Source: a virus
Taxonomy: Duplodnaviria; Heunggongvirae; Uroviricota; Caudoviricetes
Length of the DNA: 64,000 bases
Strand: one strand, 5' to 3'
Virus record (IMG/VR): IMGVR_UViG_3300037789_000070
Location: 138,576 to 202,575 of that record
Shown here one piece after another: positions 3,036-57,863 of this stretch. The translations under genes and the position numbers were made by a program. The notes under the pieces were generated by a model. It did no database searches. It worked only from the letters and a program-made list of their open reading frames with translations, and was not told where the DNA came from. Each line of letters starts with the position of its first letter. Position 1 is the first letter of the stretch.

Positions 3036-3093
3036 TTGAACTGGCGGTTTAAGGTATGATCAATGATCGTAACATTGAACCCAGTTTATTTAA

Positions 3094-4086: not shown

Positions 4087-4092
4087 TTAATC

Positions 4093-6115: not shown

Positions 6116-6127
6116 GCAGAACTTAAG

Positions 6128-10297: not shown

Positions 10298-10943
10298 CAA
10301 TATTAATTTGTCTAAAAACAACAAGACAGTAGTAACACTTCTAGTAGATGCCAGTGGAAGCATGGGTTCATGCTACAATGAAACCATTTCGGGTATTAAT
10401 GAGTATATCGATACTTTGAAAGCTTCTGATGGTAACATTACCTTTTCGTTGATTTCTTTCAATGGTATCACAGGGGCTACAGTTATTAATAAGAATGAAA
10501 AGATTAATAATGTTGAACCGCTCACTGAGTCGGTCTACCAGACAACTGGTGCCACTCCACTTTACGAATCCATCGAAAAGGCAATTGATGCTACTAAGGA
10601 AGTAGTTGGCAACGACGATGTAAATGTGGTGTTTGTTATCCAGACGGATGGTGTTGAGAATTGTTCTGCTCCGGGCTATAATAAACAGACTTCTTCCAAA
10701 AAGATTAAAGACCTTACCAGTAAGGGATGGCAGTTCATTTTTATGGGAACTGATATCGATGCGTATGGAGAGGCCGGTGGACTTGGCATTTCAACCACTA
10801 ACACGGTGAAATACAGACGAGACAATACTAGAGAATTGTATAGATCAATTGGAATGAATACAGTGGCATATGCTTCATCAGCAAATGCTACCACTATGAA
10901 TTTCTCTGACCAACAAAAATCTCAATTAGAAGATAGCGAGTAA
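10290..10943 (+). CDS. von Willebrand factor type A (vWA) domain protein with complete MIDAS
   Basis: LLVDASGSM (DxSxS), a T in TTGATPL and a D in VIQTDGVEN give a complete MIDAS, with alternating hydrophobic beta-strand pattern. Confidence 0.8.
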   Translation: MIDNINLSKNNKTVVTLLVDASGSMGSCYNETISGINEYIDTLKASDGNITFSLISFNGITGATVINKNEKINNVEPLTESVYQTTGATPLYESIEKAIDATKEVVGNDDVNVVFVIQTDGVENCSAPGYNKQTSSKKIKDLTSKGWQFIFMGTDIDAYGEAGGLGISTTNTVKYRRDNTRELYRSIGMNTVAYASSANATTMNFSDQQKSQLEDSE

Positions 10944-31537: not shown

Positions 31538-32413
31538 TCACTGATACATCATGACAGAGTTTAGATTACCTTCTTCGGCAGAAGAATTCGCAGCATCAGC
31601 AAGCTTTTCCAGAGCGTCTGCTCTCCGTTCTTCAATCTTCAAGGAAACATAGACATCATAAGGAACACCAGCCTGCTTTGCATTTTTGATGTCATTGAGG
31701 TTACGCACCTTCTGAAACGCCTGACGCTTGTCTTCGACTGAAATTTCTGCTGCCAGCGCACGAATCTGTCGTTCCTTATTTTCATCAATAGCATAGAGCT
31801 TTCGCTTTGCCGTGATAACCTCATCCGGAACAGTACCGATACCATTAGTAAAAGTCAATTCCGTGACTTCCACAGGCGTTTCTGCAAGAGCTAGATTGAC
31901 TTCATTCTTAACATAATTGCCGATCAAAACAACTTCGCTAAGAGTTTCTTCCACAGTATACTGTTTCAGCGCGTCAATGATAGTGCCGGAGACAACACGC
32001 TTAATATACACTTCATAAATTGCATCAGAAGTAATCTTTCGCTCACGAGTAGATTGTCGGTCATCAGCAAAAACTGATCGGACTTCACTAGCAACTTGAC
32101 GCAACGCTTCGGGCGTATTTTTGATGCGAAACTGAATACCTGCGGTAACATTTTCCAGATCAACATTTGACTTAGGTAGAAATACCCGAGTAATTGTCAT
32201 TGATGCGGAAGACTTGGAAGCCTCAACACGAAGTAGAGAAGCACACGCTTCGCCCGGTCCACAAAAATCCAGCCGAGTAGCACCGGGATTAATAATTTCT
32301 GGATTAACACCAGAAGAACTAATTTCAAAACCAACTTCATTTGGCTGGATAGTCACCATTTCACCACAGGCAACAAGAGCCATTGCCATAATAGAAACTA
32401 GAATTACTCGCAT
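31538..32413 (-). CDS. SPFH/band-7 (prohibitin/stomatin-like) domain lipoprotein
   Basis: Signal peptide with lipobox (LVACG). Core with SPFH-like pattern (TVEETLSEV ... VEVTELTFTNGIGTVPDEVITAKRKLYAIDENKERQIRALAAEI) and a C-terminal coiled coil. Confidence 0.65.
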   Translation of the reverse strand: MRVILVSIMAMALVACGEMVTIQPNEVGFEISSSGVNPEIINPGATRLDFCGPGEACASLLRVEASKSSASMTITRVFLPKSNVDLENVTAGIQFRIKNTPEALRQVASEVRSVFADDRQSTRERKITSDAIYEVYIKRVVSGTIIDALKQYTVEETLSEVVLIGNYVKNEVNLALAETPVEVTELTFTNGIGTVPDEVITAKRKLYAIDENKERQIRALAAEISVEDKRQAFQKVRNLNDIKNAKQAGVPYDVYVSLKIEERRADALEKLADAANSSAEEGNLNSVMMYQ

Positions 32414-35929: not shown

Positions 35930-36363
35930 GCGATACAAAGTTTGATGAAATTGTTAAGAGGATGCTTTCCAAACAAAGCGACACTGACTCTTCCGTGGAT
36001 GAGCTTTTCAATGAAGTGGCCGACCAATTGGGCGCTGTTGATGATGTGGCTAAAAGCAGTGAAATTTTCCAACAATTCACTAATGCGGTTGTCGATAATA
36101 TCATCAACGACGAAGGATTTGACAAGATCGCAAAAGACACCTATAAGAGTCTTGAAAATTTTTGTAAAGAAAGGAATTTGAATGGAATGGAACGTCCCCT
36201 TCGTTTCTATCTAATTACAAAGATACTCATGGATGCCCATATAGAAGGTCTTGACGAAATGTCTATTGCCATTCTATTAACAGGTTGTGAAGCTCAATTT
36301 ACGCGCTTTCTGAAAGAAAACCGCGAAAGTCTTCTAACAACTCCCACTCAGGGATCAGCATAA
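35917..36363 (+). CDS. hypothetical protein (148 aa)
   Basis: ORF overlapping the topo gene end. Confidence 0.5.
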   Translation: MAIMSDTKFDEIVKRMLSKQSDTDSSVDELFNEVADQLGAVDDVAKSSEIFQQFTNAVVDNIINDEGFDKIAKDTYKSLENFCKERNLNGMERPLRFYLITKILMDAHIEGLDEMSIAILLTGCEAQFTRFLKENRESLLTTPTQGSA

Positions 36364-36373
36364 GGAAACTAAA

Positions 36374-36604
36374 ATGACTAAAAAGAATCTAGTGCCGTCT
36401 AAGAACGGCGTTTTGGCCCCAGTAACAAACCTTACTAATACGGCGGTAGCTTGGTTTGATGATCAGAAAAGCGACACACAGGCAATAGTAGTTGCTGGCG
36501 TTGCCGTGGGTGGAACTATCCTAGGAACCTTCCTAGGACCACTTTCATTAATTCTGTGGCCAGCATCAGCTTATGCGGCTTACAAGCTGGCCAAGCGAAT
36601 TTAA
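36374..36604 (+). CDS. small membrane protein (76 aa)
   Basis: Two hydrophobic helices (AIVVAGVAVGGTILGTFLGPLSLILWPA). Confidence 0.5.
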   Translation: MTKKNLVPSKNGVLAPVTNLTNTAVAWFDDQKSDTQAIVVAGVAVGGTILGTFLGPLSLILWPASAYAAYKLAKRI

Positions 36605-36739
36605 GTGTTGACACCTTAGCTGGAATGATCTAAAGGTATCTTTATTGAGGGCCATTCAAGAACTTCCTTCTAAAAAACTTTCTTGCAATGAAACCATAAT
36701 AGTTTTTGGCCTATCCCTCGTTTTAAAAGGATTTCAAAG

Positions 36740-38818
36740 ATGAAGAATAAGATTTGTGTTAAGAAACTCAACGCCGTGACGTTTGATGTAAACAAGAATC
36801 GGTCCAGCCGTGCGGAAGGCATGGCTATCGCCAGTGAAATGATTAAGCTGGGCTATGTCCCATCTGATCGTCTTCTGGATATGTTGCAGCGCATTCCTGC
36901 ACGTGATCTTATTCGCGTACATTCTGACATCATCTCCACTCTCTCAGCAGAGCGTGGTTTTCATGACAATTACAATCCCATGTATCCTAACTTCCCGCAG
37001 CAGGTTAAGGATGCAAGTTCTATGGAATTGTTTTTCAATGCAATTCGTCATTACCTCACTCGCGGTGCATGGGTGCCTACTTATGCCAAGGAACCCCGTC
37101 CTCGCCTTGAAGAGGTGACCGAGACGGTAGAAATCGATTATGCGGATCATGATGATTATATGTCCGTGTTTGATCTTCTGCTCGCTTCAAATGATTCGCT
37201 TTCCGAATTCGATAAGAGTGCTGTGTTCTGGTTCTTGGACACTGAGCCGAATATCATGGTTCCGGAAAATATCCCGTATAAGGAAACCGCTTGTATTCTT
37301 GCGGCACGTTCTTTGGAAATGAAGAAGAACGATGTTTCTCTATATGTGAAGACCACTACTGATGTTCTTCGTCTTGCTGTTCATCTCTCTGGCGGCGATG
37401 TTTCTCTTGCAGAAAACACCAAGTTTAAGATCGCAAAGCGTTTTCGTAAGCCTCTCATCTCAATTCTTGAAGAGGTGATTTCAGAAGAAGACGTAAAGCG
37501 CCACGAGAACCGTTGGAAGCGTTTGTTCCATACTCTTCATGTGGGTGAGTATAAGTGGGCGGCGAAGGTCAACGCCATCGCCAAGAAGGTCCGTAATGGA
37601 GAGAATCTTGTTTCTGTTCTAACAGATTATGATTTCTTCATGAAGCATGGTGATGTCAATAAGGCGTTTGATAGTCTAAAGGGTCGTCCGGGTGAACTTG
37701 CACGTCGCCTTGACCACATTATTCGATCAGTGCCAGAAGCTAAGAATCAGAAGAGCTTTGTAGAAGAGTTCGTCAACGATATTGCGGATAAGGTGTCAAC
37801 TCGTGTTCTCATGCAAATTCTTGGGAATGTGAAGGCTCGCCGTAATAACCGTCACAAGGAAACCATTGTGTTTCCAAAGGGGGCTATTGGCAAGGCAGTC
37901 AAGGTTAACCGTGAGGGCGAGGGGACCATTAGCGCCGGAGCAATGTCTGCACTAGAAAAGGGAATTGGTAAGGTTCTCTTTGATCGTTTTGCAGAAGAAG
38001 AGGGCCTTGGCAATGTGTTCATTGATGAAGGACTGAAGAAGATTCCTCTTCCTCAGCAGCAGCGTTCTGCGTCCGAATCGATGAAGACCATTTCACGCGG
38101 AAGTCGCGTTCCGTTTGATGGCAATAACACGATTCGTCTCTTCTGTTATTGGGTTGGTCAGGACATTGACCTTTCTGCGTCTTTCCATGATGATAATTTC
38201 AACATGGTATCGCAGGTTTCCTATACCAATCTGCGTAATGGAGCAGCGTATCATAGCGGTGATATCGTTAGTGCTCCGGATGGTGCTTCTGAATTCATTG
38301 ATATTGATGTTAAGAAGGCCGAGGCCGAAGGACATCGTTATATCGTATTGAACCTTTACGTGTATTCTGGTCCGAACTTTTCCGATCATAAGGTATGTTT
38401 TGCCGGTTGGATGGATCGGAAGAAGCCCAATAGTGGTGAAGTTTATGAACCTACTACGGTCGTTAATCGTGTAGACATTTCGTCCGCTTCTCGCAATTGC
38501 ATCCCTGTGATGTTTGATATAAAGACTCGGGAAGTTATTTGGGTAGACCTTCCGTTTTCGGCTAATAAGCTGCGTAATTCCTTTTACGGTGGAAATAACG
38601 TCCAAAATAACCGTGCAAAGGTTCAGGAAGTTGTTGGAATGTTTGCCAATCTTAATGAGCAAAAGACTTCTCTCTATGATCTCTTGGAAATTCACGCCAA
38701 GAGTCGTGGTAAGATTGTCAAGGACCGTGAAGACGCAGATTTCGTCTTTGGCGTGTCTGATGGCGATTTGACCGCATATGATGTAAACACCATTAATGCA
38801 GACTTTATTAAAGGATAA
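36740..38818 (+). CDS. large protein (692 aa) with C-terminal TerD (tellurite-resistance D / Ca-binding beta-sandwich) domain; N-terminal ~480 aa unassigned
   Basis: aa ~485-620: LFCYWVGQDIDLSASFHDDNFNMVSQVSYTNLRNGAAYHSGDIVSAPDGASEFIDIDVKKAEAEGHRYIVLNLYVYSGPNFSDHKVCFAGWMDR. Aligns motif by motif with TerD: GLGWD...DLDASAFLL...FIFYNNL..DGSV.H.GDN.TG.GDGDDE.L.I.L...KIIFVVTIHD...FGQV. Confidence 0.75.
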   Translation: MKNKICVKKLNAVTFDVNKNRSSRAEGMAIASEMIKLGYVPSDRLLDMLQRIPARDLIRVHSDIISTLSAERGFHDNYNPMYPNFPQQVKDASSMELFFNAIRHYLTRGAWVPTYAKEPRPRLEEVTETVEIDYADHDDYMSVFDLLLASNDSLSEFDKSAVFWFLDTEPNIMVPENIPYKETACILAARSLEMKKNDVSLYVKTTTDVLRLAVHLSGGDVSLAENTKFKIAKRFRKPLISILEEVISEEDVKRHENRWKRLFHTLHVGEYKWAAKVNAIAKKVRNGENLVSVLTDYDFFMKHGDVNKAFDSLKGRPGELARRLDHIIRSVPEAKNQKSFVEEFVNDIADKVSTRVLMQILGNVKARRNNRHKETIVFPKGAIGKAVKVNREGEGTISAGAMSALEKGIGKVLFDRFAEEEGLGNVFIDEGLKKIPLPQQQRSASESMKTISRGSRVPFDGNNTIRLFCYWVGQDIDLSASFHDDNFNMVSQVSYTNLRNGAAYHSGDIVSAPDGASEFIDIDVKKAEAEGHRYIVLNLYVYSGPNFSDHKVCFAGWMDRKKPNSGEVYEPTTVVNRVDISSASRNCIPVMFDIKTREVIWVDLPFSANKLRNSFYGGNNVQNNRAKVQEVVGMFANLNEQKTSLYDLLEIHAKSRGKIVKDREDADFVFGVSDGDLTAYDVNTINADFIKG

Positions 38819-39272
38819 TGAAGTGAGTAACGATAATTGTCCCCATGAAACAATTTCTTCTTTCATGGGGACGTATGACTTCCTCTCGAATTTTCATACC
38901 TCCCCCTGTGAGTTCGAGGGGAAGTCATTTCCTTCTGTAGAACACGCTTATCAAGCAGCAAAGACCACTGATAAAATGTGGAAAGCTGCCATTACGGATG
39001 CACCTACTCCCGGCGAATCTAAGAAACTTGGAAGAAGGTGTCCTGTTCGGGAAGACTGGGAAGAAATCAAACTTTCTGTAATGGAAGAATTGGTTAGAAG
39101 TAAATTTTCTAATCCAAAACTTTCTCAGAAACTTCTCGAAACTAATGATAAACTTCTTGTCGAAGGAAATACTTGGGGAGATACCTTCTGGGGCGTCTGT
39201 AATGGACGGGGAGAAAACCACTTAGGTAAGATTTTAATGAAGGTTCGTTCGGAATTAAAAGAAAAAAATTGA
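38796..39272 (+). CDS. NADAR-domain protein (YbiA/DUF1768; ADP-ribose/N-glycoside hydrolase fold)
   Basis: YDFLSNF...F.GKSFPSVEHAYQAAK ... W..IKLSVMEELVRSKFSNPKLSQKLLETNDKLLVEGNTWGDTFWGVCNGRGENHLGKILMKVR is the canonical NADAR motif set. Start may be the internal ATG at 38865. Confidence 0.8.
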   Translation: MQTLLKDNEVSNDNCPHETISSFMGTYDFLSNFHTSPCEFEGKSFPSVEHAYQAAKTTDKMWKAAITDAPTPGESKKLGRRCPVREDWEEIKLSVMEELVRSKFSNPKLSQKLLETNDKLLVEGNTWGDTFWGVCNGRGENHLGKILMKVRSELKEKN

Positions 39273-39296
39273 CATATTCTTACTTTCGTGTATTTT
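39269..39296 (+). promoter_or_regulatory. sigma70-like promoter candidate TTGACA-16-TATTTT
   Basis: TTGACA 39269-39274, TATTTT 39291-39296. About 25 nt upstream of the CCA-enzyme ATG. Confidence 0.4.
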
Positions 39297-39320
39297 ACAT
39301 GAATGAAAGTAAGGAAACCC

Positions 39321-40550
39321 ATGAACACCGCATTAAAAATTGATTTTCCAGAACTTCATTCAGAAGAATTGAAGTGTCTGTTCGATGCATTCACATCGAA
39401 TGGTCATAAAGTTTTCTTGGTGGGTGGCTCTGTCCGAAACGCTCTTCTTGGAAGGCCGGTTTCCGATCTTGATATCACGGTCGATTGTCCCCCCGATATC
39501 AGTACTATTGTTCTTGAGGCAGCAGGGTTTGAAGTAATTCCTGTTGGTTTTGATCACGGGACTGTTGTTGCCATTTTGAATGGACAAAGCTTTGAAGTCA
39601 CGACATTTCGTAAGGACGTAGAAACTGACGGACGTCATGCTAAAGTCATCTTTACTGATGATATTGTTGAAGATGCTAAGCGTCGAGACTTAACTATCAA
39701 TGCCCTCTATGCAGATATCGAAGGAAATGTTTTTGACCCTCTCGGCAATATCGGTGACATTGAGGGGCCAGTCGTTCGTTTTATTGGCGTTCCTAGTGAA
39801 CGCATCACCGAAGATTTTTTGCGAATTCTTCGTTTTTTCAGGTTCTCAAGCACCTACACATCTTCTGTTGATTCAGAAGGATTGGAAGCCTGTGTTCGAA
39901 ATAAGGTGGGACTAAAAAGTCTTTCAATAGAGCGTATCCGGGATGAAATTATCAAAATCATTCCAACTAATAACGCTCCTAATATTTTTCATATTATGAA
40001 ACATAATGGAATTCTGGATTTTATTTCAGGATTGAACTTTGATGTAGACCGCTTTGAACGTGCGGTCCAGCGACTTGGTGTCGAGGATGTCGATTTCCTT
40101 GTTTCGTTGATCCTGTTTCATGAAAAGAATAGTTTTGATTCTATTGAGAAATTCAAACTTCCGAATAAAATCAAGAATCGAATCAGTACTTTGGTACACC
40201 TGTCTCCAATAGAAGTTTCTACCTCTACAGGCATGAAGAAAATTCGTAGCTTGATTTTTCATTATGGGAAGGAAGAAATCTTAGATATTCTTAAGCTTAA
40301 GATTGCAGATTGTGATGAAGCAGAGGTGGATCTTTTTAAAGAGGTTTTGACAAATGCTTCGGCAGTTTCCCTTCCGAATAATCCATTAACTGGTAAGGAA
40401 CTTATTAAACGCGGGTTCAAGCCCGGAGTTCTTTTTAAAGACATCAAGAATATTTTCGATGAACTTTGGGAAGAAGCAGACTTCACAACAGACCCAGTGG
40501 AGTTGGATGAACTGATTTCGTCTGCGGTATCTAAGGTCCAGAATTCTTAA
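39321..40550 (+). CDS. tRNA nucleotidyltransferase (CCA-adding enzyme) / poly(A) polymerase-family head domain
   Basis: KVFLVGGSVRNALLGRPVSDLDITV is the GG(S/A)VRD-LLG....D.D head-domain signature, followed by RRDLTINALY. ATG at 39321 preceded by AAGGA. Track start 39303 is probably too early. Confidence 0.85.
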   Translation: MNTALKIDFPELHSEELKCLFDAFTSNGHKVFLVGGSVRNALLGRPVSDLDITVDCPPDISTIVLEAAGFEVIPVGFDHGTVVAILNGQSFEVTTFRKDVETDGRHAKVIFTDDIVEDAKRRDLTINALYADIEGNVFDPLGNIGDIEGPVVRFIGVPSERITEDFLRILRFFRFSSTYTSSVDSEGLEACVRNKVGLKSLSIERIRDEIIKIIPTNNAPNIFHIMKHNGILDFISGLNFDVDRFERAVQRLGVEDVDFLVSLILFHEKNSFDSIEKFKLPNKIKNRISTLVHLSPIEVSTSTGMKKIRSLIFHYGKEEILDILKLKIADCDEAEVDLFKEVLTNASAVSLPNNPLTGKELIKRGFKPGVLFKDIKNIFDELWEEADFTTDPVELDELISSAVSKVQNS

Positions 40551-40984
40551 GAAGCTTTGGCGGTACTTGACAACTTTTCGAGTACCGCCTTTTTTAATTT
40601 CGGATTAATCTTTGCATAGTCTAAAATGTTACCAAAAGATCTGACAAAAATCTGATTTTGAATGGCTTCAGCAAATTGATCTACTTGAGTTCTCGACATA
40701 CTACCGGCATAAGTTTGATGTTCGTCAGTCAAACTAACAGAGTAATAATTATCAAAGCTGCCATTGCCAATTCTGTAGGCAACCCACATATGTTCAGATA
40801 ATGAACCATCCCAAACATATAGATCGCCTTTATAATCGCCCGCTCTTAAATCTCCAAATTTAGTTTCCCCAAATAACTTTCTAACAAAATTCTTATGTGG
40901 GTTGACAAATACCCTAACCTCTCTATCACTTTTCCCGTCAGTAAGTAAAATACTCCTACCTTCGAATAAATCTACAATTTTCAT
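40547..40984 (-). CDS. hypothetical protein (145 aa) immediately downstream of the minus-strand fibre gene
   Basis: ORF. Start overlaps the fibre stop. Confidence 0.5.
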   Translation of the reverse strand: MKIVDLFEGRSILLTDGKSDREVRVFVNPHKNFVRKLFGETKFGDLRAGDYKGDLYVWDGSLSEHMWVAYRIGNGSFDNYYSVSLTDEHQTYAGSMSRTQVDQFAEAIQNQIFVRSFGNILDYAKINPKLKKAVLEKLSSTAKAS

Positions 40985-43900
40985 CTTTCGACTTCCATTT
41001 TATTCACGTCTTTTCTTTCGCCATAAACGACATAGAAAGCATTAATTCTTTTCTTCATGAGAGAAGATTTTCCAATCACCACTTTCTTGTTATCAAACGA
41101 TTTAACAAACAATTTCTGATACTCGCCAATTGGTTCAGTTGAAACTGTAATACTATCGGCATCTACAAGGCCCTCCCAGTACTCAGGAAGCTCGATAATT
41201 CCATCAGCAGGAATTCTACCTCTGACATAGACGCCGTTCTCAGGGCCTTCCAGAGAGCCGTGGCGAAGCTTTTTGCCGGGCTTGGTAGGATGATCAATTA
41301 AGAAACTCTTGTCGTAAGCATAAAGAGTGCCCGTGATGTATAAATCATCACCAGCAAATCTCGCTGCCTGAACACCTGCCAAGGTAATTGCGAGTTCATC
41401 GGCAGAAGGAGAATAAATTCCTGTGTTAGAGTCTCCACCAAAGGTCAGGCTAGGAGTACCAACGACTCCTTGATCCAGTACCAACTTTTTATATGGGTTA
41501 GAATCGGTTCCAAGATAAGAAGAATCGCTGCCATCTCTAGGCTGCATAAAACTCGACCTTAGAACGGCTGCATTTCCACTTGAACCAACATAAACGTTTG
41601 ATCCTGTGAAATTAGAAATGAATAGATCGGTTCCGGAAAGTGGGTCTAGATGTTTGGTTTGAATGCGACCATCACCAGAACCGTCATTGATAGTTAAAAC
41701 ACCAGAAGAAGTAATCTTACCAGCTTCAATACCACCAGCAACAAAACTCAAAGTATCTGCAGCCGAAGCACCGATACCCGTATTAGTGTCTGCGTTATTC
41801 GGAATGATTGAAGGAACGGTTCCAGAAGCAACTACATCTGCGAGAGACCAACTTCCACTAGTAGAATTAGTTATTCCACCATCAAGGGAAACTGTACCAT
41901 CAAACTGAATTTCTCCACTCTGTTCTACTCTAAACACTCTAAGATCGGCACCAGATTGGTTCTCACTCCAAAGCTCAAGTGAATTATCTACACCCGTTTC
42001 CGACCCAGTATACTTGAAGAAGAAGCCATCATTTCCGTTACTATGGCCAACTCGTAAGAAATTCCAATCGTTATCATCACCAGAAAAATGGAGACGAGTA
42101 TTAGCGGCATATGGAACAGTAATCTCTCCACCGTCTGGTTGTAACACCATAGAGGAAGAAGTGTTGTTGCCTTGGATGCGTGGAACCGTCAGTGTGTGAC
42201 TAGTATCTGATATAGTAATTGGTGTGTTAGCAGTTAATACAGAACTGGTAAGTCTGGCCACCTCTGATCCGCCAGCTATTAAACTTAAAGCGTCTGCGGC
42301 TGCGGTACCAATACCAGTATTTGCATCTGATTTGTCTGGGAGAACACTAGGAACTGTATTAGAGGCATTTACATAGGCAAGCTTAGGACCTCCTGATGCA
42401 AATGCTTCTAAACCGGTGGTGGTCAATTCAAACGAAGTACTTCCGTTCGCCAATGTCATCACAGAACCAGAATAGTCATATGATATTTGAGCGCCTATAG
42501 TGCCGTCATCAGAGAATGATAATCCACCAGTATCTGTTGAATAAATTACAATACCACTATAAGCATCAGAACTATCACCAACAACTACAGTATCTAAGGA
42601 ACCAGCTATATCTGCAGGTCTGTCTTCGCCACCAAGTTTAACACGTCCGGGAAGAACAATTTGACCGTCAGCATAAAAACTAGCAGCTTGAGAAAGTGTA
42701 GATTTATGAGTTGAAGGAAATGCAAAACTTACGACTGCTTGAGGAGTTAAATCGGACCTAACGCCAATACGAATATCTAATGCAGAAGTTGGAGAGGCAC
42801 TAGTGGTGTACGTTATTGAACAACGATACCAACCACCATTAACCTCTACTAGTTCAACATCATCTAAACTTCCATTTCCAAGACTAACGTCAGAAGCCAA
42901 CATAGTTGCAGGATCAAACACACCTTCAAAATCGTTATCAGCGTCTCCTAGATATGCCTGAACAACAAATTTCTGTCCAGAAGTTAGTTTTGCAAGAACT
43001 GAGGTTGTGTATTGAGTTGAACCGTCTAGAGTAATTCCAGTTTCATATTCTCTTTTATAACCAGTCCCACTTGTCAATTCTAGCGTAGCTGCAGATGACC
43101 CACCAATTGGATCAGTTACTGAACCTGTAAAACTTCCTGTACCATCAGTTAATTCACCACTGAACAGAGAACCTATTGCTGTTGCAGGAGAATTTATTAG
43201 TTCATCAGTTCTTTCAATTATTAATCTTTCGCCAGAAGGGTTTCCAGAAGATACCTGTTGAGAAATTTTAAATTTAGAACCTGTACCAGCGGTATATTGA
43301 TCTTCTGAGAAAGTTTCTCTTCTTGCATAATTATACCGGACCGTTCTTTCACCCTTACGACCATCTTGTAAAACATCTTCTACAAGAATCGAAGAACCAG
43401 TTTGATTATCAGTATACAACTCTAATGAGTTTAGATTGCCACCCTTGGAACCATTGTATTTTCTTGAGAAACCATAATTAGATGACCCATCATCAATACG
43501 CCAAACATTAGCATCAGTATTTGAGTTCTTAATATAGAGTCCATCCGTCACTGCGGTTCCAGAACCTAATACAATTCCTGTATTTGTGATTGAAGCAAAA
43601 GTTTCGGTGCTGTCTACAAGGTCTATGCCACTGGCTTTTGATAGAAGCCTAATATCAAAATCATCACTAGCGTCTCCTTTGAAATCAATATAAGAAGAAG
43701 GAGTTCCAGAAGAACCTTTTACCAGTTCTAGATTTCCATCGTCACCAAGTTGAGAAACTTTGCCACTATTTGATACCTTTATACTTCCTGAGTTAACTAG
43801 AAGATCGGTTCCATCATAGCCCCACCAAACTTCACTTAAATCTTCATTACCAAACGCATGACGCCATGTATCTACGCGTGTGCCAATAGAAGCTGAATAT

Positions 43901-46900
43901 GTTCCAGCATCAAATCTTATGGAGGCGAAGTTTGAAGAAGAATCTATTCGCAGAGAATAATCACCGAATGAAGACTGATTTCTTGAAATGTCAATTTTCC
44001 CGGTGGTGCTGTCATCGGCATCAGACCTTAAAAATTGGGAAGCTTCCAGACCATCAACGGTATCGGCATCTAAATTGTTTCCCGATCCTTCATTTGAAGT
44101 GGTTAAGATATTAGCATCAGAAATGAAATCAGCTACTGAACGTTTCTTAGGTACCGAATTATCATCATCATCAAAAAACACAAGATCATCAGCCGTAGAC
44201 GCAGACGCTTCCTGAAGATTGGCATTTGATAAAGAAATGGTTCTGTTTTGCGAAAGATCGCCGCCACCAGATAAACCAAAACCAGTGGAAAGCGTTCTTG
44301 TTATCTGAACGAAATCGGTACTATCAAGTCCATCAAGTGTATCTGCGTTAGTTACATCTTCAGAACCCGGAGCGAAGAGTAATTTCATATTACCTTCAAT
44401 ACCAAACTTCCATCCGTTTGATGCTTCATCCCAAATCAACAGAGCATCTGGTTCGTCGCCACGCTCAATGCGGAAACCGGAATCTAGTGTTGGCGTTCCT
44501 GTCTGGTTTTTAGATAATGTAATAACAGGGTCTTCAACAGAAAGTTCAGTAGTATTGATGGTGGTGGTTTCGCCATTAACCGTTAAGTTTCCAGAAACAG
44601 TTACATTTCCAGTAAAAGTCTCATCTACATTGTTTCTAGCAATACCAAGATCATCTATAACATCTGAAATGATAACTGCTCTTGCAATATCACTAGAAGA
44701 GACATCTTGGAAGATGAGTTTATCGGAAAGAGTTATCGTACTACTTCCAAGAGAAGAGAAATCTAATTCAATTGTTCTATTGGTCGAAAGATCTCCGCCA
44801 CCGGTTAAACCAATTCCAGTTGAAATTGATCTACTGGTCTGTACAAGTCCAGCAAGATGAACGCCATCAACTGTGTCAGCGTCTAGTCCACTTCCAGAAC
44901 CATCGTTAGAAGCAGTCCATATTCCTAAATCAGATATGAAGTTGCTTACGGTCCTTCTTGAAGCTACAGTTTCAGAAAGATCATATGTCACAATACTGTC
45001 GGTCAGTGCGACACTTTCTGAAGAGGAAAGAGAATTTAAATCAAGTTCAATTGTTCTGTCAGAAGTTAAATCACCACCACCAGACAGTCCGGTTCCAGTT
45101 GAAATTGATCTACTAGTCTGTACAAGTCCAGCAAGATGAACGCCATCAACTGTGTCGGCGTCTAGTCCGTTACCAGAACCCGTGTCGGATGTCGTTATAA
45201 CACCAAGATCATTGAAAAAGTTACTAACACTTCTTCTTATAGTCTGGTCAGATGAATCGTCATAGAAAGCAAGACTGTCATCGGTTTCGATTTCCGTAGT
45301 TGAAGTAAGCGATTCGATATCAAGTTCAATTGTTCTGTCAGAAGTTAAATCACCACCACCAGACAGTCCGGTTCCAGTTGAAATTGATCTACTGTTTTGA
45401 ACGATTGCGCTTCCTTGGATGCCATCAACCGTATCGGCATCCAATCCACTTCCAGAACCATCGTTAGAAGCAGTCCATATATTATTGTCTGATATAAACT
45501 GAGGAATACTTCTCTGTTTTACGGTTGCAGAGTTGGTAAAGAAGAGAAGGGAACCGGTATTAGCAGATGTTGTTGCATCAATTCCGATGGTAGAAAGTCT
45601 TAAACTTCTATTTGTTGAAAGGTCACCACCACCAAAAAGACCGGAACCACTATCGGTTGAAATTGATCTACTGGTCTGTACAAGTCCAGCAAGATGAACG
45701 CCATCAACTGTGTCGGCGTCAATACCAGAACCACTACCAACATTGCCTGCATGAAACACATCATACCAAGCGTCATCGTCGCCTATCTGCCACTCAGTTC
45801 CATTATATCTAATCTGTGTTCCCGCCACTTCTCCAATTCTAAAATCAGAGGTATAAGCCGTCAATTCATATTGTTTTGTTCCATTACCAATTATAATGTT
45901 TTGACTTGAACCATCGGTTACATTGGTAAACGTAGCATTCATCTGATCATCAATATCAGATCGTATGAATTGCGAAGATAAAATGCCATTTAATTGAGTT
46001 GCATTAACGGCACTGTTAGACGTCAGTAGTTCATATTCAGAACCAGATAAACCAGCTTTCCACTTATCGGAAACCTCGTCCCACAAAATTCTTGCGTTGG
46101 TTTGGAGTCCCCTCTCAACTTCAATGCCAGCATTTTCAGTAGGATTGGAAGTAACATCCCCATTCAAAGTTATGATATTATCTGAAATATTTAATTCGGT
46201 GGTACTGATGGTGGTGGTAGTTCCACGAACTGTTAGGTTCCCATCAACAATTAAATCTCCCGTGAAATTTTGTGATGCCTCGCTTAGAATAGCAACATCA
46301 AGTGCATCAATGAGGTTTGATAGTGTTGTTTTTCTTAATGATGTGCCATCAAAGAAAGTGATTTCATTAGTTCCGGATGGGTTTTGAGAAGTAACACCAT
46401 TTGTAGATAAAGACAGACTTCTATCAGCAGACAGGTTACCACCACCAGATAAACCAGAACCACTAACAGTAGATACTAATCTAGATGTTCTTGTATAAAA
46501 TGAGCCTTGAACCCCATCTAATGTGTCAGCGTCCAGACCGCTACTAGATCCATCATTACCTGCGTGCCAAACCTTATTCCCATTAATTCTAAGTTCAGCA
46601 GTGTTGGGGTTGGAACCATCCGCTTTAAATTCAAACTCTGTTCCACCAGAACCGTTCGCAGTTAAAGACACACCACCGGATGAATTACCAAATAAATCCC
46701 AAACCCCAGTATCAGTAGAAGTAAAAGAAATACCTGCGTTAAGGGCGGCAGTGAATGTTCCAGAGAAATTTTTATCTCCAGTGGTCAACAACATTTGGGT
46801 AGAATGAACGCCATCAACTGTATCAGCGTCCAGTCCGTTACCACTTCCTTCATCAGCCGTAGTTAGAATGCCGATGGAATTAATGAAAGACGATACGGTT

Positions 46901-49236
46901 GCTCTTCTAGAATCGTTAGAAGAATTAGAATCTGAAAACAGAAGATAATCGTCAGAAGCCGGAACTGCTACAATTAAACGATTCAGGTCTAGATAGAGAT
47001 TCAAGTCGTCATCAAGAACTCCTCCTCCACCTAAACCAGATTCATTATTAGTATTGATAGAAAACGTCTTTTGCACAAATGCTGATGCTTCGATACCATC
47101 AACTGTATCAGCATCAAGACCATTGCCGGAACCTGTGTTAGCAGTAGTTAATATATTAAGGTCTGAAAGGACTGCACCAAGATTTCTCTTCTTAATGGCA
47201 TTTGAATTGGAGAAATCAGAAAAGGCAATAAAATCATTTCCTGTAACTGCAGAAGATGGTGAAAGAAGAGAATAATCTAACTCAATTGTTCTATTAGTAG
47301 ATAAATCACCACCACCGGCCAGACCATCACCAACGGTAATCGTTCTGCTGGTCTGTACAAGTCCAGCAAGATGAACTCCATCAACCGTATCTGCATCAAG
47401 ACCACTTCCATCACCATCAACGGTTTTAATTGCAGTCAATAATTGTGAAGGAGTTTGATCGGCAGTTGCTCCGCTTTCAATAGTGTCTAATTTTGAGTAA
47501 ACGGCATCAATATCTCTTCCATTAATGTTTCCCGAAACACTTATAGAAGATGCGGTTAATGAACCGCCAACATAAAAATTAGAGGTCAGAGTACTAAATC
47601 TGTCGTTAGTCTCGTCCCATATAAATCTTACATTGCCGCTCGTTCCACGTTCTACTTCAAATCCTGCATCTTGAGATGGTGAACCAGTTTCATCAGAATT
47701 AAGAACAATGATGTTATCGCCGATGTTAACTGTATTACTATCAATCTGAGTGGTTGTTCCTTCAACGGTGATATTACCTTTAACAACAATACCATCATCG
47801 TTGATTTCAACTCTCTGCCCTGCTCCTGTAGAGATTCCAATACTATCTGCCCCAGTTCTATAGAACCCGGTGTTAGTATCACTCATAAACGATATTGAAG
47901 GAGTACTTTCGGTTCCATCGCCAACATAGATTGTACTAATATTTGAAGACGACCACGGCTGTGATGATTTGCCAAGGATACTAGTACCTTCAAGAACAAC
48001 ATCGGTACCATCTCTTAACACCAAATCATCGGAAAGATTTAATCCGCTTAAATTTTCAGAACCATCAACGGTTAGAATTCTCAAATCAGAGATAAATTGA
48101 GTTGCGGTTCTTACTTTTTCAGTTGTGTTGTCCGTCCAGAACGATATTAGGTTAGAACCGACTATAGGAGACGTGGTATCAAGACCTACTTTTGTGAGGG
48201 TGATGGTCCTGTCAGCCGTTAAATCGCCACCACCGGCCAAACCTGCGCCAGTGGAGATGGTTCTAGTAGACCTAGCAAAGGCAGTGCTGTCCAATCCATC
48301 AAGTGTTCCGGCATCGACCGCTAGAGGATTGTCAGATGTTACGATATTGAAATCAGCGATAAAATCTGAAACTTCTCTTCCCCTAAGAGTTCCATCCCAA
48401 AATGCAATAACAGAATCATCTGATGGAGCAGTGGAAGTTCCTAATCCTGAAAAATCAACTGATAGGGTCCTGTCAGCCGTTAAATCGCCGCCACCGGCCA
48501 AACCTGCGCCAGTGGAGATGGTTCTTAGTTGTGTTGCAACAGCCGTTCCGTTTACATAAAGACCGGCCAAAGAAGCGGACAAAATCTCTGTACTACCATT
48601 AACGGTGATTGAGAACTTTTCAGTTCCTGAATTATTATCAGTGTCTATATTGTGCGTGATGTTGCCAGAAGACGATATATTGAGGTCGCCAACTGATCTA
48701 ATGGATTGAGAAATAAATTCGGTAGCGGTCACAGAACCGGCCACAGAACCGGCCACATCAGACCTTAAGAATTGAGAAGCTTCTAATCCGTCGAGAAGAT
48801 CCGCATCAATTCCAGAGCCGGAACCGTCATTAGCCAAGACTTCATTGATAACATTTTGAGCAATTTCATGAAGCCATTCGGTTCCGGTCCATACTAGAGT
48901 TTTATCTTGTTCTTCATCCCAGACTCTCCATCCTTCTTCTGGTTCAAAGAATATCCAAGTATCCGATACCCATCTAGCAATCTCATCATCATGCCCGGCC
49001 CACGCACCGGTCGCACCGGTCGCAACGATATAACTGTCTCCTTCTTGGGGGGTAGTTTCAGGGGTTGTTTCGTCAGAATAACGAACTGAAAAGCCAAGTT
49101 CAGAAAATTCACCTAGGGTTACTGGTGATTGACCCGGTATTGAAAGAACCAAACCAGCACTAGTGGCAGTTAAGGTCGCCTTTCCTATTGAAAAGCTATC
49201 ACCACTAATACCAGTTATATTTGATTTTCTAGCCAT
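40981..49236 (-). CDS. giant tail-fibre-like protein (2751 aa) with about 13 DADT(V/L)DG-type repeats
   Basis: 8.3-kb ORF. Repeats of SGSGLDADTVDGVHLAGLVQTSRSISTGTGLSGGGDLTSDRTIELD. Very G/S/T-rich. C-terminal ~130 aa non-repetitive. Confidence 0.85.
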   Translation of the reverse strand: MARKSNITGISGDSFSIGKATLTATSAGLVLSIPGQSPVTLGEFSELGFSVRYSDETTPETTPQEGDSYIVATGATGAWAGHDDEIARWVSDTWIFFEPEEGWRVWDEEQDKTLVWTGTEWLHEIAQNVINEVLANDGSGSGIDADLLDGLEASQFLRSDVAGSVAGSVTATEFISQSIRSVGDLNISSSGNITHNIDTDNNSGTEKFSITVNGSTEILSASLAGLYVNGTAVATQLRTISTGAGLAGGGDLTADRTLSVDFSGLGTSTAPSDDSVIAFWDGTLRGREVSDFIADFNIVTSDNPLAVDAGTLDGLDSTAFARSTRTISTGAGLAGGGDLTADRTITLTKVGLDTTSPIVGSNLISFWTDNTTEKVRTATQFISDLRILTVDGSENLSGLNLSDDLVLRDGTDVVLEGTSILGKSSQPWSSSNISTIYVGDGTESTPSISFMSDTNTGFYRTGADSIGISTGAGQRVEINDDGIVVKGNITVEGTTTQIDSNTVNIGDNIIVLNSDETGSPSQDAGFEVERGTSGNVRFIWDETNDRFSTLTSNFYVGGSLTASSISVSGNINGRDIDAVYSKLDTIESGATADQTPSQLLTAIKTVDGDGSGLDADTVDGVHLAGLVQTSRTITVGDGLAGGGDLSTNRTIELDYSLLSPSSAVTGNDFIAFSDFSNSNAIKKRNLGAVLSDLNILTTANTGSGNGLDADTVDGIEASAFVQKTFSINTNNESGLGGGGVLDDDLNLYLDLNRLIVAVPASDDYLLFSDSNSSNDSRRATVSSFINSIGILTTADEGSGNGLDADTVDGVHSTQMLLTTGDKNFSGTFTAALNAGISFTSTDTGVWDLFGNSSGGVSLTANGSGGTEFEFKADGSNPNTAELRINGNKVWHAGNDGSSSGLDADTLDGVQGSFYTRTSRLVSTVSGSGLSGGGNLSADRSLSLSTNGVTSQNPSGTNEITFFDGTSLRKTTLSNLIDALDVAILSEASQNFTGDLIVDGNLTVRGTTTTISTTELNISDNIITLNGDVTSNPTENAGIEVERGLQTNARILWDEVSDKWKAGLSGSEYELLTSNSAVNATQLNGILSSQFIRSDIDDQMNATFTNVTDGSSQNIIIGNGTKQYELTAYTSDFRIGEVAGTQIRYNGTEWQIGDDDAWYDVFHAGNVGSGSGIDADTVDGVHLAGLVQTSRSISTDSGSGLFGGGDLSTNRSLRLSTIGIDATTSANTGSLLFFTNSATVKQRSIPQFISDNNIWTASNDGSGSGLDADTVDGIQGSAIVQNSRSISTGTGLSGGGDLTSDRTIELDIESLTSTTEIETDDSLAFYDDSSDQTIRRSVSNFFNDLGVITTSDTGSGNGLDADTVDGVHLAGLVQTSRSISTGTGLSGGGDLTSDRTIELDLNSLSSSESVALTDSIVTYDLSETVASRRTVSNFISDLGIWTASNDGSGSGLDADTVDGVHLAGLVQTSRSISTGIGLTGGGDLSTNRTIELDFSSLGSSTITLSDKLIFQDVSSSDIARAVIISDVIDDLGIARNNVDETFTGNVTVSGNLTVNGETTTINTTELSVEDPVITLSKNQTGTPTLDSGFRIERGDEPDALLIWDEASNGWKFGIEGNMKLLFAPGSEDVTNADTLDGLDSTDFVQITRTLSTGFGLSGGGDLSQNRTISLSNANLQEASASTADDLVFFDDDDNSVPKKRSVADFISDANILTTSNEGSGNNLDADTVDGLEASQFLRSDADDSTTGKIDISRNQSSFGDYSLRIDSSSNFASIRFDAGTYSASIGTRVDTWRHAFGNEDLSEVWWGYDGTDLLVNSGSIKVSNSGKVSQLGDDGNLELVKGSSGTPSSYIDFKGDASDDFDIRLLSKASGIDLVDSTETFASITNTGIVLGSGTAVTDGLYIKNSNTDANVWRIDDGSSNYGFSRKYNGSKGGNLNSLELYTDNQTGSSILVEDVLQDGRKGERTVRYNYARRETFSEDQYTAGTGSKFKISQQVSSGNPSGERLIIERTDELINSPATAIGSLFSGELTDGTGSFTGSVTDPIGGSSAATLELTSGTGYKREYETGITLDGSTQYTTSVLAKLTSGQKFVVQAYLGDADNDFEGVFDPATMLASDVSLGNGSLDDVELVEVNGGWYRCSITYTTSASPTSALDIRIGVRSDLTPQAVVSFAFPSTHKSTLSQAASFYADGQIVLPGRVKLGGEDRPADIAGSLDTVVVGDSSDAYSGIVIYSTDTGGLSFSDDGTIGAQISYDYSGSVMTLANGSTSFELTTTGLEAFASGGPKLAYVNASNTVPSVLPDKSDANTGIGTAAADALSLIAGGSEVARLTSSVLTANTPITISDTSHTLTVPRIQGNNTSSSMVLQPDGGEITVPYAANTRLHFSGDDNDWNFLRVGHSNGNDGFFFKYTGSETGVDNSLELWSENQSGADLRVFRVEQSGEIQFDGTVSLDGGITNSTSGSWSLADVVASGTVPSIIPNNADTNTGIGASAADTLSFVAGGIEAGKITSSGVLTINDGSGDGRIQTKHLDPLSGTDLFISNFTGSNVYVGSSGNAAVLRSSFMQPRDGSDSSYLGTDSNPYKKLVLDQGVVGTPSLTFGGDSNTGIYSPSADELAITLAGVQAARFAGDDLYITGTLYAYDKSFLIDHPTKPGKKLRHGSLEGPENGVYVRGRIPADGIIELPEYWEGLVDADSITVSTEPIGEYQKLFVKSFDNKKVVIGKSSLMKKRINAFYVVYGERKDVNKMEVER
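44740..45730. repeat. tandem ~280-bp coding repeats with ~130-bp near-identical cores (at least 4 copies)
   Basis: The core ...CAATTGTTCT(G/A)TC...TTAAATCACCACCACC...CCAGTTGAAATTGATCTACTGGTCTGTACAAGTCCAGCAAGATGAACGCCATCAACTGTGTC(A/G)GCGTC recurs at about 44831, 45110, 45390 (diverged) and 45671. More copies at about 47343, and a pair at about 48190/48467. Confidence 0.8.
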
Positions 49237-49312: not shown

Positions 49313-50230
49313 CTACTTATTTAAGAAATGTCTCTTAATTACACGTTTCATGTCACCAAGTAGGGTGAGTTGTGGAACATCAACAACTTTTTCATCTTCA
49401 AAGGTATATGGGGGAACCCATTCACCGATTGTTTCATCCCAAATAAGAGCCTCACAATCTTTATCTGGATTGAGCCAAATAAATGCCTGATGTTCTTCTG
49501 TTGGGACACTTTCTGAAACAACTGCACAGTATTCTCCATTTTCGAGAACGCACCTAGGAGTAAGTGTCTCTTCAATTCTTTTTTGAATTTCATTGAGAGC
49601 TAGGTTTTCAGTCCCTGAATGATTAAACACATCCTCTTCACTTGGACCTTCGAATGTAATTTCTTTCCACACATTCTGGCCGGTCGCTATGTTCTTTTCT
49701 ACAAAGTAGATAGGATATCCATTACATTGTTCAGGAAAAACATCAGAAGTCTGTCCCTCTAGATCAGAGATTTCTTCGTCAATAACAACCCAAAAATTTT
49801 CAAAGTTCTGAGAAAGTTTGTTCAAAACTGGTGGAGTTTTGGAGAAGGTATAAAGAGGAGTTTTCTTTTCTTCATTCTCCATATCTGGCCAAAGTTCTTT
49901 GCGACGATCAGCTTCAAGCTCTTGCATCTTTTCTCGATTATATACTTCTGAATCGAGTAAAATCCAATCTTTAGCAAGAATATCATCCATAGAAGGTGTC
50001 CAGACTTCTGCACATTCTTCATCGGCATAATTAACAAAGAATCTGTCGATATGAGACTGATAAGATAGAATTGTATTCTCTGGAAGAAGAGATTTAAGAG
50101 GGTCCCTATTAACCTGAAAGGTTGATCCTTTAACAAGATAAAGAAACTCTCTGTCATCCCAACCCTTTCGCCTAACTCTATTACCATTTTCAAGGTCTGT
50201 TAATGCTTTTTGAAAATCTTGTACACCCAT
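49313..50230 (-). CDS. hypothetical protein (305 aa)
   Basis: ORF. Confidence 0.55.
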   Translation of the reverse strand: MGVQDFQKALTDLENGNRVRRKGWDDREFLYLVKGSTFQVNRDPLKSLLPENTILSYQSHIDRFFVNYADEECAEVWTPSMDDILAKDWILLDSEVYNREKMQELEADRRKELWPDMENEEKKTPLYTFSKTPPVLNKLSQNFENFWVVIDEEISDLEGQTSDVFPEQCNGYPIYFVEKNIATGQNVWKEITFEGPSEEDVFNHSGTENLALNEIQKRIEETLTPRCVLENGEYCAVVSESVPTEEHQAFIWLNPDKDCEALIWDETIGEWVPPYTFEDEKVVDVPQLTLLGDMKRVIKRHFLNK

Positions 50231-57109: not shown

Positions 57110-57245
57110 GACAAATTTCCTTCAATCGGCTTTATTGACTATATTTACATCAACAAAGTCAAAAAGAATTCCTTTTGACTTTACAAATCATGACCAATCT
57201 AATATAGTAGATTGAGATATCACATCATTATGGGATACATTGACA

Positions 57246-57863
57246 ATGAAATACGGCAGAACATATCATTTGAAGTCTTCGCCCGGTGCTACCCGAGACG
57301 ACAAGATCATTGAAACCGTGGATCATCTCTATGGCCATGAAGTGGTGGTGACGGAAAAGATGGATGGAGAAAATACCACCATCAATTCTACTGGCTGTCA
57401 CGCTAGGAGTGAAGATTCTCGTTATCACCCATCCAGAGATTGGATTAAGGGTTTTGCAGCATCAATTTCTCCCAAAATTGGAACTCCTGATTTAAAGATT
57501 GTCGGTGAATATCTCTATGCGCGTCACTCAATTGTATATGAAGAATTACCATCATATTTCCTAGGGTTCGCCGTTTCGGTTTTTGACGTCTTTTATGACT
57601 GGCCAATGACTTTGGCCATGTTCAACTATTATGGGGTTGAACATGTTCCTACGATTTATGAAGGCATTTTCACATCAGAAAAAGAACGTGAAATTATCAA
57701 TTCTATGAATTTCACAAAGCAAGAAGGCTTTGTCGTTCGTAGGAAGGATTGTTTTTCAAGGGACGAAATGAATACACATATAGCAAAATATGTGCGTGCT
57801 AATCACGTAACAACTGATGAACATTGGATGCACAAAGAGATCATTAAAAACGATCTTAAATAA
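57246..57863 (+). CDS. ATP-dependent RNA ligase, Rnl2-like nucleotidyltransferase domain
   Basis: Motif I VVVTEKMDGEN (KxDG; compare T4 Rnl2 EKIHGTN), motif III VGEYLYARH, motif IV EGFVVRRKD, motif V KYVRANH. N-terminal KYGRTYHL as in the Rnl2 family. The track start 57240 is TTG; the ATG at 57246 was used. Confidence 0.65.
   Translation: MKYGRTYHLKSSPGATRDDKIIETVDHLYGHEVVVTEKMDGENTTINSTGCHARSEDSRYHPSRDWIKGFAASISPKIGTPDLKIVGEYLYARHSIVYEELPSYFLGFAVSVFDVFYDWPMTLAMFNYYGVEHVPTIYEGIFTSEKEREIINSMNFTKQEGFVVRRKDCFSRDEMNTHIAKYVRANHVTTDEHWMHKEIIKNDLK

Follow-up and report, generated by a model that had tools for sequence, protein, structure and literature searches.

Background

Proteins of the NADAR superfamily are N-glycosidic hydrolases, which bind ADP-ribose and cut the bond by which it is attached to a nucleobase at the exocyclic amino group, so that free ADP-ribose and the intact base are released. 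Here we examine a stand-alone NADAR-domain gene in a 64 kb stretch of phage DNA (positions 138,576 to 202,575 of IMG/VR record IMGVR_UViG_3300037789_000070; hereafter the window), in which about 65 open reading frames (ORFs) were scanned for domains. On balance we favour the view that this gene encodes an eraser of the type called AdfN, which would remove base-linked ADP-ribose from phage DNA and thereby counter DarT1-like toxins; we put the probability of this reading at roughly 55%.

The closest characterised relative of the window NADAR, as judged by sequence comparison, is AdfN-Bas32 of T5-like phages. AdfN-Bas32 neutralises DarT1 in uninfected E. coli and enables RB69, T5 and Bas25 to form plaques again on hosts with DarTG1, and the thymidine-specific DarTG2 is not countered by it (Johannesman et al., Nat Commun 2025, PMC11825919). 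Another phage enzyme, AdfN-T4 (gp30.3), has an anti-DarTG1 function as well, which depends on a further T-even factor (PMC11825919), and it does not remove ADP-ribose from cytidine. Every member of the NADAR family tested, E. coli YbiA included, takes ADP-ribose off guanine in vitro. One diagnostic residue differs by type, being Glu in YbiA and the 'NADAR' class, Asp in DarG1 and His in the T4 type (PMC11543638). This Glu is essential in SCO5665, where the E167D/Q variants are dead. Those Glu-type enzymes that have been tested strip ADP-ribose off guanine and cytosine, in DNA and in RNA, while DarG1 and the T4 NADARs strip the guanine adduct only (Mikolcevic et al. 2026). The residues in contact with ADP-ribose have been defined in the NADAR of Phytophthora nicotianae (PnNADAR; Schuller et al. 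2023, PMC11543638).

Identity and fold of the NADAR gene

The gene under study occupies the following position:

38796..39272, plus strand: NADAR-domain ORF, folded domain at about residues 18-157 (PF08719, AlphaFold2, Foldseek)

Our analysis confirmed that this gene is intact and genuine and that its assignment to the NADAR family is far beyond chance. The ORF is uninterrupted and comprises 158 codons counted from the first ATG, the numbering that we use for its residues throughout. The hidden Markov model PF08719 (Pfam NADAR/DUF1768) matches it with E=6.8e-28 and 98.4 bits, against a GA (gathering threshold) of 35.1, and covers the whole domain (positions 9-163 of 163 in the profile). Its match to phrog_1017 of the PHROG database has E=4.7e-48, and with 88.2 bits it also passes the cut-off of 73.7 set for the NCBIfam model TIGR02464 (ribofla_fusion, riboflavin biosynthesis intermediates N-glycosidase). 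The canonical NADAR (YbiA/DUF1768) motifs, to which the sequence-only reading had pointed, are indeed present as FLSNF, VEHAYQAAK, KKLGR and VEGNTWGDTFWG.

The AlphaFold2 model of the protein, for which 31 homologues served as input, has a mean pLDDT of 93.1 and displays a YbiA-like fold, with an alpha-helical core and small beta-hairpins at its flanks; residues 1-17 form a coil of low confidence and are not conserved. Two solved structures are matched by this model at E<=0.001 in Foldseek and no others, namely E. coli YbiA (2B3W; E=1.2e-10, TM 0.80, root-mean-square deviation 2.0 Å) and the complex of the Phytophthora NADAR with ADP-ribose (8BAU; E=9e-8, TM 0.77).

Active site and NADAR type

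The ADP-ribose contacts of PnNADAR (PMC11543638) were mapped onto the window NADAR by HMMER and MAFFT alignments (the numbering of the PDB chain equals that of the paper plus 2), with the following correspondences:

PnNADAR E43: E49 of the window NADAR
PnNADAR K50: K56
PnNADAR K75: K76
PnNADAR R79: R80
PnNADAR Y84: R85 (Arg also in YbiA and AdfN-Bas32)
PnNADAR D86: D87
PnNADAR W89: W88
PnNADAR R93: K92 (conservative replacement)
PnNADAR E125: E123 (the family-diagnostic catalytic Glu)
PnNADAR D130: D129
PnNADAR W133: W132

On the DNA, two groups of these residues are encoded as follows:

38940..38963, plus strand: codons E49...K56 (VEHAYQAAK), equivalent to PnNADAR E43/K50 and T4 AdfN E36/K43
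39162..39191, plus strand: codons E123...D129...W132 (VEGNTWGDTFW), from the alignment of 32 homologues

The catalytic Glu/Asp and Trp positions are thus all retained (E49, E123, D129, W88 and W132), and both departures from PnNADAR, K92 for R93 and R85 for Y84, are matched in YbiA and AdfN-Bas32. Across the 32 homologues E49, K76, R85, W88, E123, D129 and W132 are invariant, and K56, D87 and K92 are conserved at >=90%. The pair equivalent to E49 and K56 touches the distal ribose and the pyrophosphate in PnNADAR and in T4 AdfN (PMC11543638, PMC11825919). The diagnostic position holds a Glu (E123 in VEGNTWGD), and by this residue the window NADAR is Glu-type (YbiA/'NADAR' class) and not as DarG1 type (Asp) or T4 gp30.3 type (His). 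By analogy with the Glu-type enzymes it could act on guanine- as well as cytosine-linked ADP-ribose.

Comparison with described NADARs

NADARs are common in phages, and a sizeable fraction of the large ones carry them; homologues of the window protein were found in 759 GenBank phage records, in 112 IMG/VR stretches and in more than 5,900 database clusters. Its nearest database relatives are 60-64% identical, and none outside the same phage exceeds 64%. A megablast search with positions 36000-41000 against GenBank phages gave no match, and at the level of sequence the window appears to represent a lineage without a sequenced close relative among GenBank phages. The top tblastn matches of the NADAR included T5-like phages (Markadamsvirinae), and a search from one of these homologues led to the Escherichia phages IrisVonRoten (Bas32) and HildyBeyeler (Bas33). 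Pairwise identity to the window NADAR amounts to 54% for the T5-like homologue UTK0009 (itself 60% identical to AdfN-Bas32), 39% for PnNADAR, 37% for YbiA and 24% for T4 gp30.3, so that phage NADARs (49-54%) stand closer to the window protein than YbiA does.

The validated AdfNs with which we compared the window NADAR were AdfN-Bas32 and AdfN-T4. AdfN-Bas32 (bas32_0066, 149 residues, with a Pfam NADAR match) and the window protein share 48-49% identity along the entire domain (E=3e-47). Both are orphan single-domain phage NADARs with a Glu-type site and the motif VEGNTWGDT(F/Y)WGVC, and both genes lie among genes of replication and nucleotide metabolism. They differ in their source, as AdfN-Bas32 is encoded by a T5-like siphovirus of E. 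coli with a genome of 112 kb and not by a jumbo relative of the T4 superfamily, and in their neighbours: the AdfN-Bas32 locus contains RNase H and ThyA but, unlike the window, no CCA enzyme or TerD-fold gene close by. The activity of AdfN-Bas32 has moreover been established by experiment, whereas that of the window NADAR is deduced from its similarity.

AdfN-T4 is likewise an orphan phage NADAR, in which E36/K43 correspond to E49/K56, but it has a His in place of the catalytic Glu and is barely alignable (BLASTP E=0.009, 24% identity). Membership of the window NADAR in this type (PF08010) was rejected, as it has no match to PF08010, to which T4 gp30.3 itself matches with 4.6e-71; a search of the PDB from T4 gp30.3 gave no match.

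Among solved structures the best match by sequence is YbiA of E. coli K-12 (PDB 2B3W; COG3236/TIGR02464; E=3.6e-20, 37% identity), which shares with the window NADAR the catalytic Glu and the Arg at the position of PnNADAR Y84. Unlike the phage gene, however, ybiA has a housekeeping function on the chromosome and belongs to an operon under LexA control, and its product gives no protection from DarT1 in vivo. PnNADAR (8BAU; Schuller et al. 2023) has the same fold and nine ADP-ribose-binding or catalytic residues in common with the window NADAR, but possesses N-terminal and internal extensions that are lacking in the latter, its adenine-stacking Y84 is Arg85 there, and identity is only about 27-39%.

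DarG1, the BC4488-type antitoxin associated with DarT1, belongs to the same superfamily and shares the predicted chemistry (hydrolysis of guanine-N2-ADP-ribose), by which both would detoxify the products of DarT1. By its description it has an Asp at the diagnostic position, a basic beta-beta-alpha extension at the N-terminus and a gene located beside darT, as opposed to Glu123, a disordered and non-conserved N-terminus and the lack of a toxin neighbour in our case. The window NADAR was accordingly tried as a DarG1/BC4488 antitoxin and failed, on account of Glu123, the unstructured residues 1-17 and the lack of a neighbouring ADP-ribosyltransferase (ART). No DarG1 structure was retrieved by sequence or Foldseek searches with the window NADAR.

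A candidate eraser of ADP-ribose on phage DNA

The biochemical class of the window NADAR is close to certain; we infer its physiological target, and with it what it acts on, when it is made and which defence it counters, as follows. The gene product would be made early or mid infection, which is probable because the gene lies in the terminal part of a rightward block with topoisomerase II genes. A host ART toxin, either DarT1 from the DarTG1 system or a similar one that modifies guanine or cytosine, would place ADP-ribose on the replicating phage DNA. The NADAR would bind this ADP-ribose through K56, K76, R80, W88 and W132 and position the distal ribose through E49, E123 and D129; its removal from phage DNA would then restore replication. 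The protein would in this manner act as an orphan 'antitoxin-like' enzyme of counter-defence, as AdfN does.

This proposal draws on what was shown above, the NADAR domain and its fold, the residues of the active site and the close homology to a validated AdfN, and on the orphan status of the gene. The NADAR is an orphan, i.e. devoid of an ART partner, within the window, because no ART domain was found in the scanned ORFs, the two giant proteins included. It adjoins replication genes, as do the NADAR genes of T5-like phages (RNR, DHFR, ThyA, RNase H) and of T4 (DNA ligase). The same phage encodes a further candidate for anti-defence:

49313-50230, minus strand: 305-residue Tad2-like protein, N-terminal PF11195 (E=1.8e-14), with an extension of about 210 residues

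This Tad2-like (anti-Thoeris) protein probably serves as a sponge of immune signals that derive from NAD. It lies 10 kb away from the NADAR, and we count it in favour of the proposal as another investment in anti-defence.

Several observations weigh against an AdfN-like role. E. coli YbiA and T4 gp30.3 remove guanine-linked ADP-ribose in vitro and yet do not rescue from DarT1, and because both are active in vitro without protecting cells, in vivo function is not readable from motifs alone. The window NADAR exceeds the cut-off of TIGR02464, while AdfN-Bas32 falls below it (66.3 vs 73.7). An RNA substrate is equally compatible with the setting, because the next gene downstream encodes an enzyme of RNA and an RNA ligase is carried by the phage as well. 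Finally, a sequence identity of 48% leaves room for a changed specificity.

The suggestion of the sequence-only reading, that a stand-alone phage NADAR may neutralise a DarT-type toxin of the host, agrees with the fold, the active site and the 48% identity to AdfN-Bas32; it is correct in kind, with support as strong as a sequence analysis can give. It matches a published and validated mechanism, however, and is not new, because the close homologue AdfN-Bas32 has already been shown to defeat DarTG1. The window NADAR is a real and correctly recognised gene of an already known family, and the gene itself raises no new question; the very large and unannotated TerD-fold family of the 692-residue protein next door is the less explored item and poses the more open one. 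Should the proposal hold true, enzymatic counter-defence of the AdfN type would extend from coliphages to an uncultivated lineage of jumbo phages, and a divergent Glu-type NADAR (60-64% to its nearest relatives) would be added for studies of the specificity for guanine versus cytosine adducts and for DNA versus RNA.

Translation start

Two in-frame start codons alone precede the conserved residues I20 and F23, namely ATG 38796 and GTG 38823. ATG 38796 is without a Shine-Dalgarno sequence, and so is ATG 38865. GTG 38823, by contrast, is preceded at a distance of 7 nt by AAAGGA (38810-38815), and the neighbouring genes of this phage have AAAGGA or AAGGA 6-8 nt upstream of their starts. Similarity to all NADAR relatives begins at residue 18-20, and the products of AdfN-Bas32 and of the UTK0009 homologue likewise comprise 149 residues. 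From these sequence features GTG 38823 is likely the true start, with a product of 149 residues, and the preferred coding range would be:

38823..39272, plus strand: NADAR, GTG start, 149 residues, with the AAAGGA site and no overlap

The database gene call (P0121, 135 residues, start at M24) was rejected as too short, because the nearly invariant I20 and the invariant F23 would be lost. The choice of start bears on the overlap of 23 nt with the upstream gene, from which a linkage of the two genes had been argued. The stop codon of that gene occupies 38816-38818, so that the overlap exists with ATG 38796 as the start only, and GTG 38823 begins 4 nt past this stop. Because it is GTG 38823 that has the usual ribosome-binding site of the phage and ATG 38796 has none, the overlap is probably an artefact of picking the longest ORF.

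Gene neighbourhood and the question of a cassette

The NADAR belongs to a rightward block, in which the topoisomerase subunits are followed by two small ORFs, the 692-residue gene, the NADAR and a class II tRNA nucleotidyltransferase. The elements around the NADAR are:

36740..38818, plus strand: 692-residue gene, helical N-terminal part and C-terminal TerD-like beta-sandwich at about 455-606
39269..39296, plus strand: promoter-like TTGACA-16-TATTTT in the NADAR-CCA spacer (48 nt), a consensus match only
39303..40550, plus strand: class II tRNA nucleotidyltransferase of the CCA-adding type (PF01743 E=6.5e-26; PF12627; phrog_2244 E=1.8e-54)
40559..40589, plus strand: GC-rich hairpin of 12 bp with T-runs, placed where the CCA gene and p145 converge
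40547-40984, minus strand: ORFan p145, 145 residues, convergent with the CCA gene

The topoisomerase II subunits have counterparts of about 39-43% identity in jumbo phages, among them Atu_ph07 and RaK2-like phages, and p145 is recorded on a contig of 327,992 bp, which gives a minimum for the genome size of the phage. The window is regarded as phage DNA because of its topoisomerase II, which resembles that of jumbo phages of the T4 superfamily, its fibre of 2751 residues and the contig of at least 328 kb; these sequence features point to a jumbo phage related to the T4 superfamily as the source.

That a CCA-adding enzyme follows the NADAR, as had been read from the sequence, is borne out by the matches to PF01743 and phrog_2244; its score against NF009814 (191 bits) stays under the cut-off of that model. 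The database call of this gene comprises 409 residues from M7, and AAGGAA precedes ATG 39321, which is likely the true start by this criterion. The phage also carries an RNA ligase:

57240-57863, plus strand: RNA ligase, 207 residues (PF09414, E=6.2e-27)

The ligase and the CCA-adding enzyme constitute RNA-repair functions carried by the phage, and no tRNA gene was detected in the whole window with ARAGORN.

No terminator-like site lies between the 692-residue, NADAR and CCA genes, and because a strong hairpin is found past the end of the CCA gene, co-transcription of the three is plausible. The hairpin at 40559-40589 is likely a terminator, and likely a bidirectional one, which closes the rightward unit and marks the boundary between the replication and accessory genes and a leftward block of tail fibre genes. 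Promoter-like sites such as that in the spacer number 13 in total, against a shuffled expectation of 10.3, i.e. without enrichment. The GC content at third codon positions is the same in the NADAR and the CCA gene (0.346 in both) and higher in the 692-residue gene (0.442), which is compatible with the NADAR and CCA genes having been acquired as a separate pair.

The idea that the three genes form one cassette of repair or counter-defence did not withstand a comparison of loci, in addition to which the overlap invoked for it depends on a start without a ribosome-binding site. We surveyed the neighbourhood within 6 kb of 80 viral NADAR loci: the 692-residue family was found at none of them (0/80), and a PolyA_pol-type (CCA-like) gene at 4/80, two of these four being duplicates. 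Conversely, four phage loci with the 692-residue family are without a NADAR. In the closest relative contig found (L088), whose topoisomerase large subunit is about 76% identical, the topoisomerase is followed by a small ORF, a homologue of the 692-residue protein (50% identity) and then an unrelated ORF of 625 residues, with neither a NADAR nor a CCA gene after the homologue. On these counts a conserved TerD-NADAR-CCA cassette was rejected. An independent neighbourhood of a NADAR, a SLOG protein and a tRNA nucleotidyltransferase exists at one of the four loci with a CCA-like gene, on an unrelated contig (L071, IMGVR_UViG_3300009177_000029), where positions 2204-5012 encode on one strand a NADAR, a 120-residue ORF, a SLOG/YAcAr protein, a 171-residue ORF and a CCA-adding enzyme.

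The upstream TerD-fold gene

The label 'TerD protein', under which the upstream gene had been introduced, is right at the level of the modelled fold only. Pfam gave no match for the 692-residue protein, and TerD (PF02342) was not matched even at E<=10 by either the full-length protein or a C-terminal part of 252 residues. The AlphaFold2 model (pLDDT 84.7), however, is all-alpha in its N-terminal two-thirds, followed by a beta-sandwich that Foldseek aligns to TerD structures (3IBZ, E=4.2e-6, TMt 0.67; 2QZ7, E=1.7e-3, TMt 0.64). NF041916 (MXAN_6230/SCO0854 family RING domain-containing protein) scores 350 bits, under its cut-off of 600, and more than 2,788 unnamed homologues occur in databases; invariant motifs of the family are DIDLS and HSGD...G.E.FIDI.

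Phage homologues of this gene are located beside tRNA/tmRNA clusters (contig L082, Weasels2 and RcXuper), beside the RNA-repair nucleotidyltransferase RlaP (RcXuper and XacN1) and beside RtcB (Weasels2). The neighbours in RcXuper and XacN1 that are annotated as 'nucleotidyl transferase' were considered as CCA enzymes and dismissed, being RlaP (PF10127) and not of the PolyA_pol type. These contexts suggest a tRNA- or RNA-related role for the 692-residue gene, which would agree more with the CCA enzyme than with the NADAR, and it is probably not functionally tied to the latter. A scan of IMG/VR with the protein yielded no confirmed relative, the bacterial contexts of the family, in Aliikangiella and on a contig of 320 kb, gave no information, and a literature search on SCO0854 and MXAN_6230 found no papers.

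Alternative substrates and roles

The strongest competitor of an AdfN-like function on DNA is the same chemistry on RNA, which we hold to be possible at perhaps one chance in five: together with the CCA enzyme and the RNA ligase, the NADAR would take ADP-ribose off G or C of ART-modified tRNA or mRNA, or clear by-products of RNA repair. NADARs have been tied to RNA-repair contexts by Aravind's group, all tested NADAR families reverse guanine-linked ADP-ribose on RNA, and Glu-type NADAR/YbiA enzymes also act on the cytosine adduct. The setting is in line with this, since the NADAR lies directly 5' of the tRNA nucleotidyltransferase, on the same strand and with no terminator between them; the ligase lies in the window at 57240-57863, a single strand of the unrelated contig L071 encodes a NADAR together with a SLOG protein and a CCA-adding enzyme, and the phage homologues of the 692-residue gene adjoin tRNA clusters, RlaP and RtcB. 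The pairing with a CCA-like gene, however, recurs at 4/80 viral NADAR loci only, the nearest relative contig has neither gene at this position, a promoter-like site separates the two, and AdfN-Bas32, the closest characterised relative, works on DNA in vivo. We know of no tRNA-targeting anti-phage system that ADP-ribosylates guanine or cytosine, and we count this against an RNA substrate as well.

Considerably less probable is a role in the breakdown of soluble immune signals that derive from NAD, or of toxic derivatives of ADP-ribose (isomers of cyclic ADP-ribose, or ADP-ribose linked to bases or amino acids), exerted beside the Tad2-like sponge. Such a role would be in line with a proposal of Iyer et al. 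2022, with the Tad2-like domain protein at 49313-50230 and with the adjacency of a NADAR and a SLOG protein in L071. Cleavage of a signalling molecule by a NADAR is, on the other hand, not reported in the NADAR literature that we examined, the three phage NADARs that have been tested work via the de-ADP-ribosylation of DNA (PMC11825919), and the Tad2-like gene lies 10 kb off on the opposite strand.

Slightly less credit still is given to an N-glycosidase of metabolites like the housekeeping YbiA/COG3236, directed at intermediates of the riboflavin pathway or another ribosylated small metabolite. TIGR02464 (88.2 bits, above 73.7) and the match to E. coli YbiA as the best solved structure (E=3.6e-20; TM 0.80) would speak for it, and many homologues bear the database labels 'ribA/ribD-fused uncharacterized protein' or 'N-glycosidase YbiA'. 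TIGR02464 does not separate the two functions, however, because UTK0009, with its 60% identity to AdfN-Bas32, passes the cut-off too (76.5 bits), AdfN-Bas32 itself standing at 66.3. No riboflavin-pathway gene occurs among the scanned ORFs of the 64-kb window, the NADAR is stand-alone (149-158 residues) with no RibA or RibD fusion, YbiA itself hydrolyses both the guanine and the cytosine adduct, and the benefit to a lytic phage is not obvious.

We consider it improbable, and a shade more so than the foregoing, that the 692-residue TerD-fold protein, the NADAR and the CCA enzyme make up a joint module of tRNA protection, in which a host ART would mark G or C of tRNA, conceivably in the 3' CCA, the NADAR would erase these marks, the nucleotidyltransferase would rebuild the 3' ends and the TerD-fold protein would serve as a tRNA-associated sensor or scaffold. 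Least probable of all is that the NADAR reverses or limits the action of the phage's own ART, in self-immunity or regulation as with T4 Alt, ModA and ModB near 30.3, since the proximity of T4 NADAR gene 30.3 to alt (about 3 kb) and the NADAR-ART co-expression in T4-like phages (Iyer et al.) are set against about 65 window ORFs, both giant proteins among them, without any ART domain and against a neighbouring ORFan, p145, without detectable homology to anything.

Other genes of the window

ORFan p145 was also considered as a hidden small ART of the YarT kind and rejected, as searches of domain families, the PDB and protein databases gave no homologue except p145 itself; the search for homologues covered 5.8 billion proteins. 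The remaining features that we recorded are:

192-7048, plus strand: seven consecutive co-directional ORFs of 306-349 residues, low GC (32%)
10290-10943, plus strand: vWA domain protein (PF00092/PF13519, E~1.5e-5)
13887-25007, plus strand: giant ORF of 3706 residues, no Pfam match
31538-32413, minus strand: SPFH/Band-7 domain protein (PF01145, E=2.4e-6)
40981-49236, minus strand: giant ORF of 2751 residues, repeat-rich fibre with N-terminal DUF2793

The seven ORFs at 192-7048 display marginal mutual similarity, and a C-terminal motif of about 24 residues is common to three of them; they may represent a highly diverged array of paralogues.

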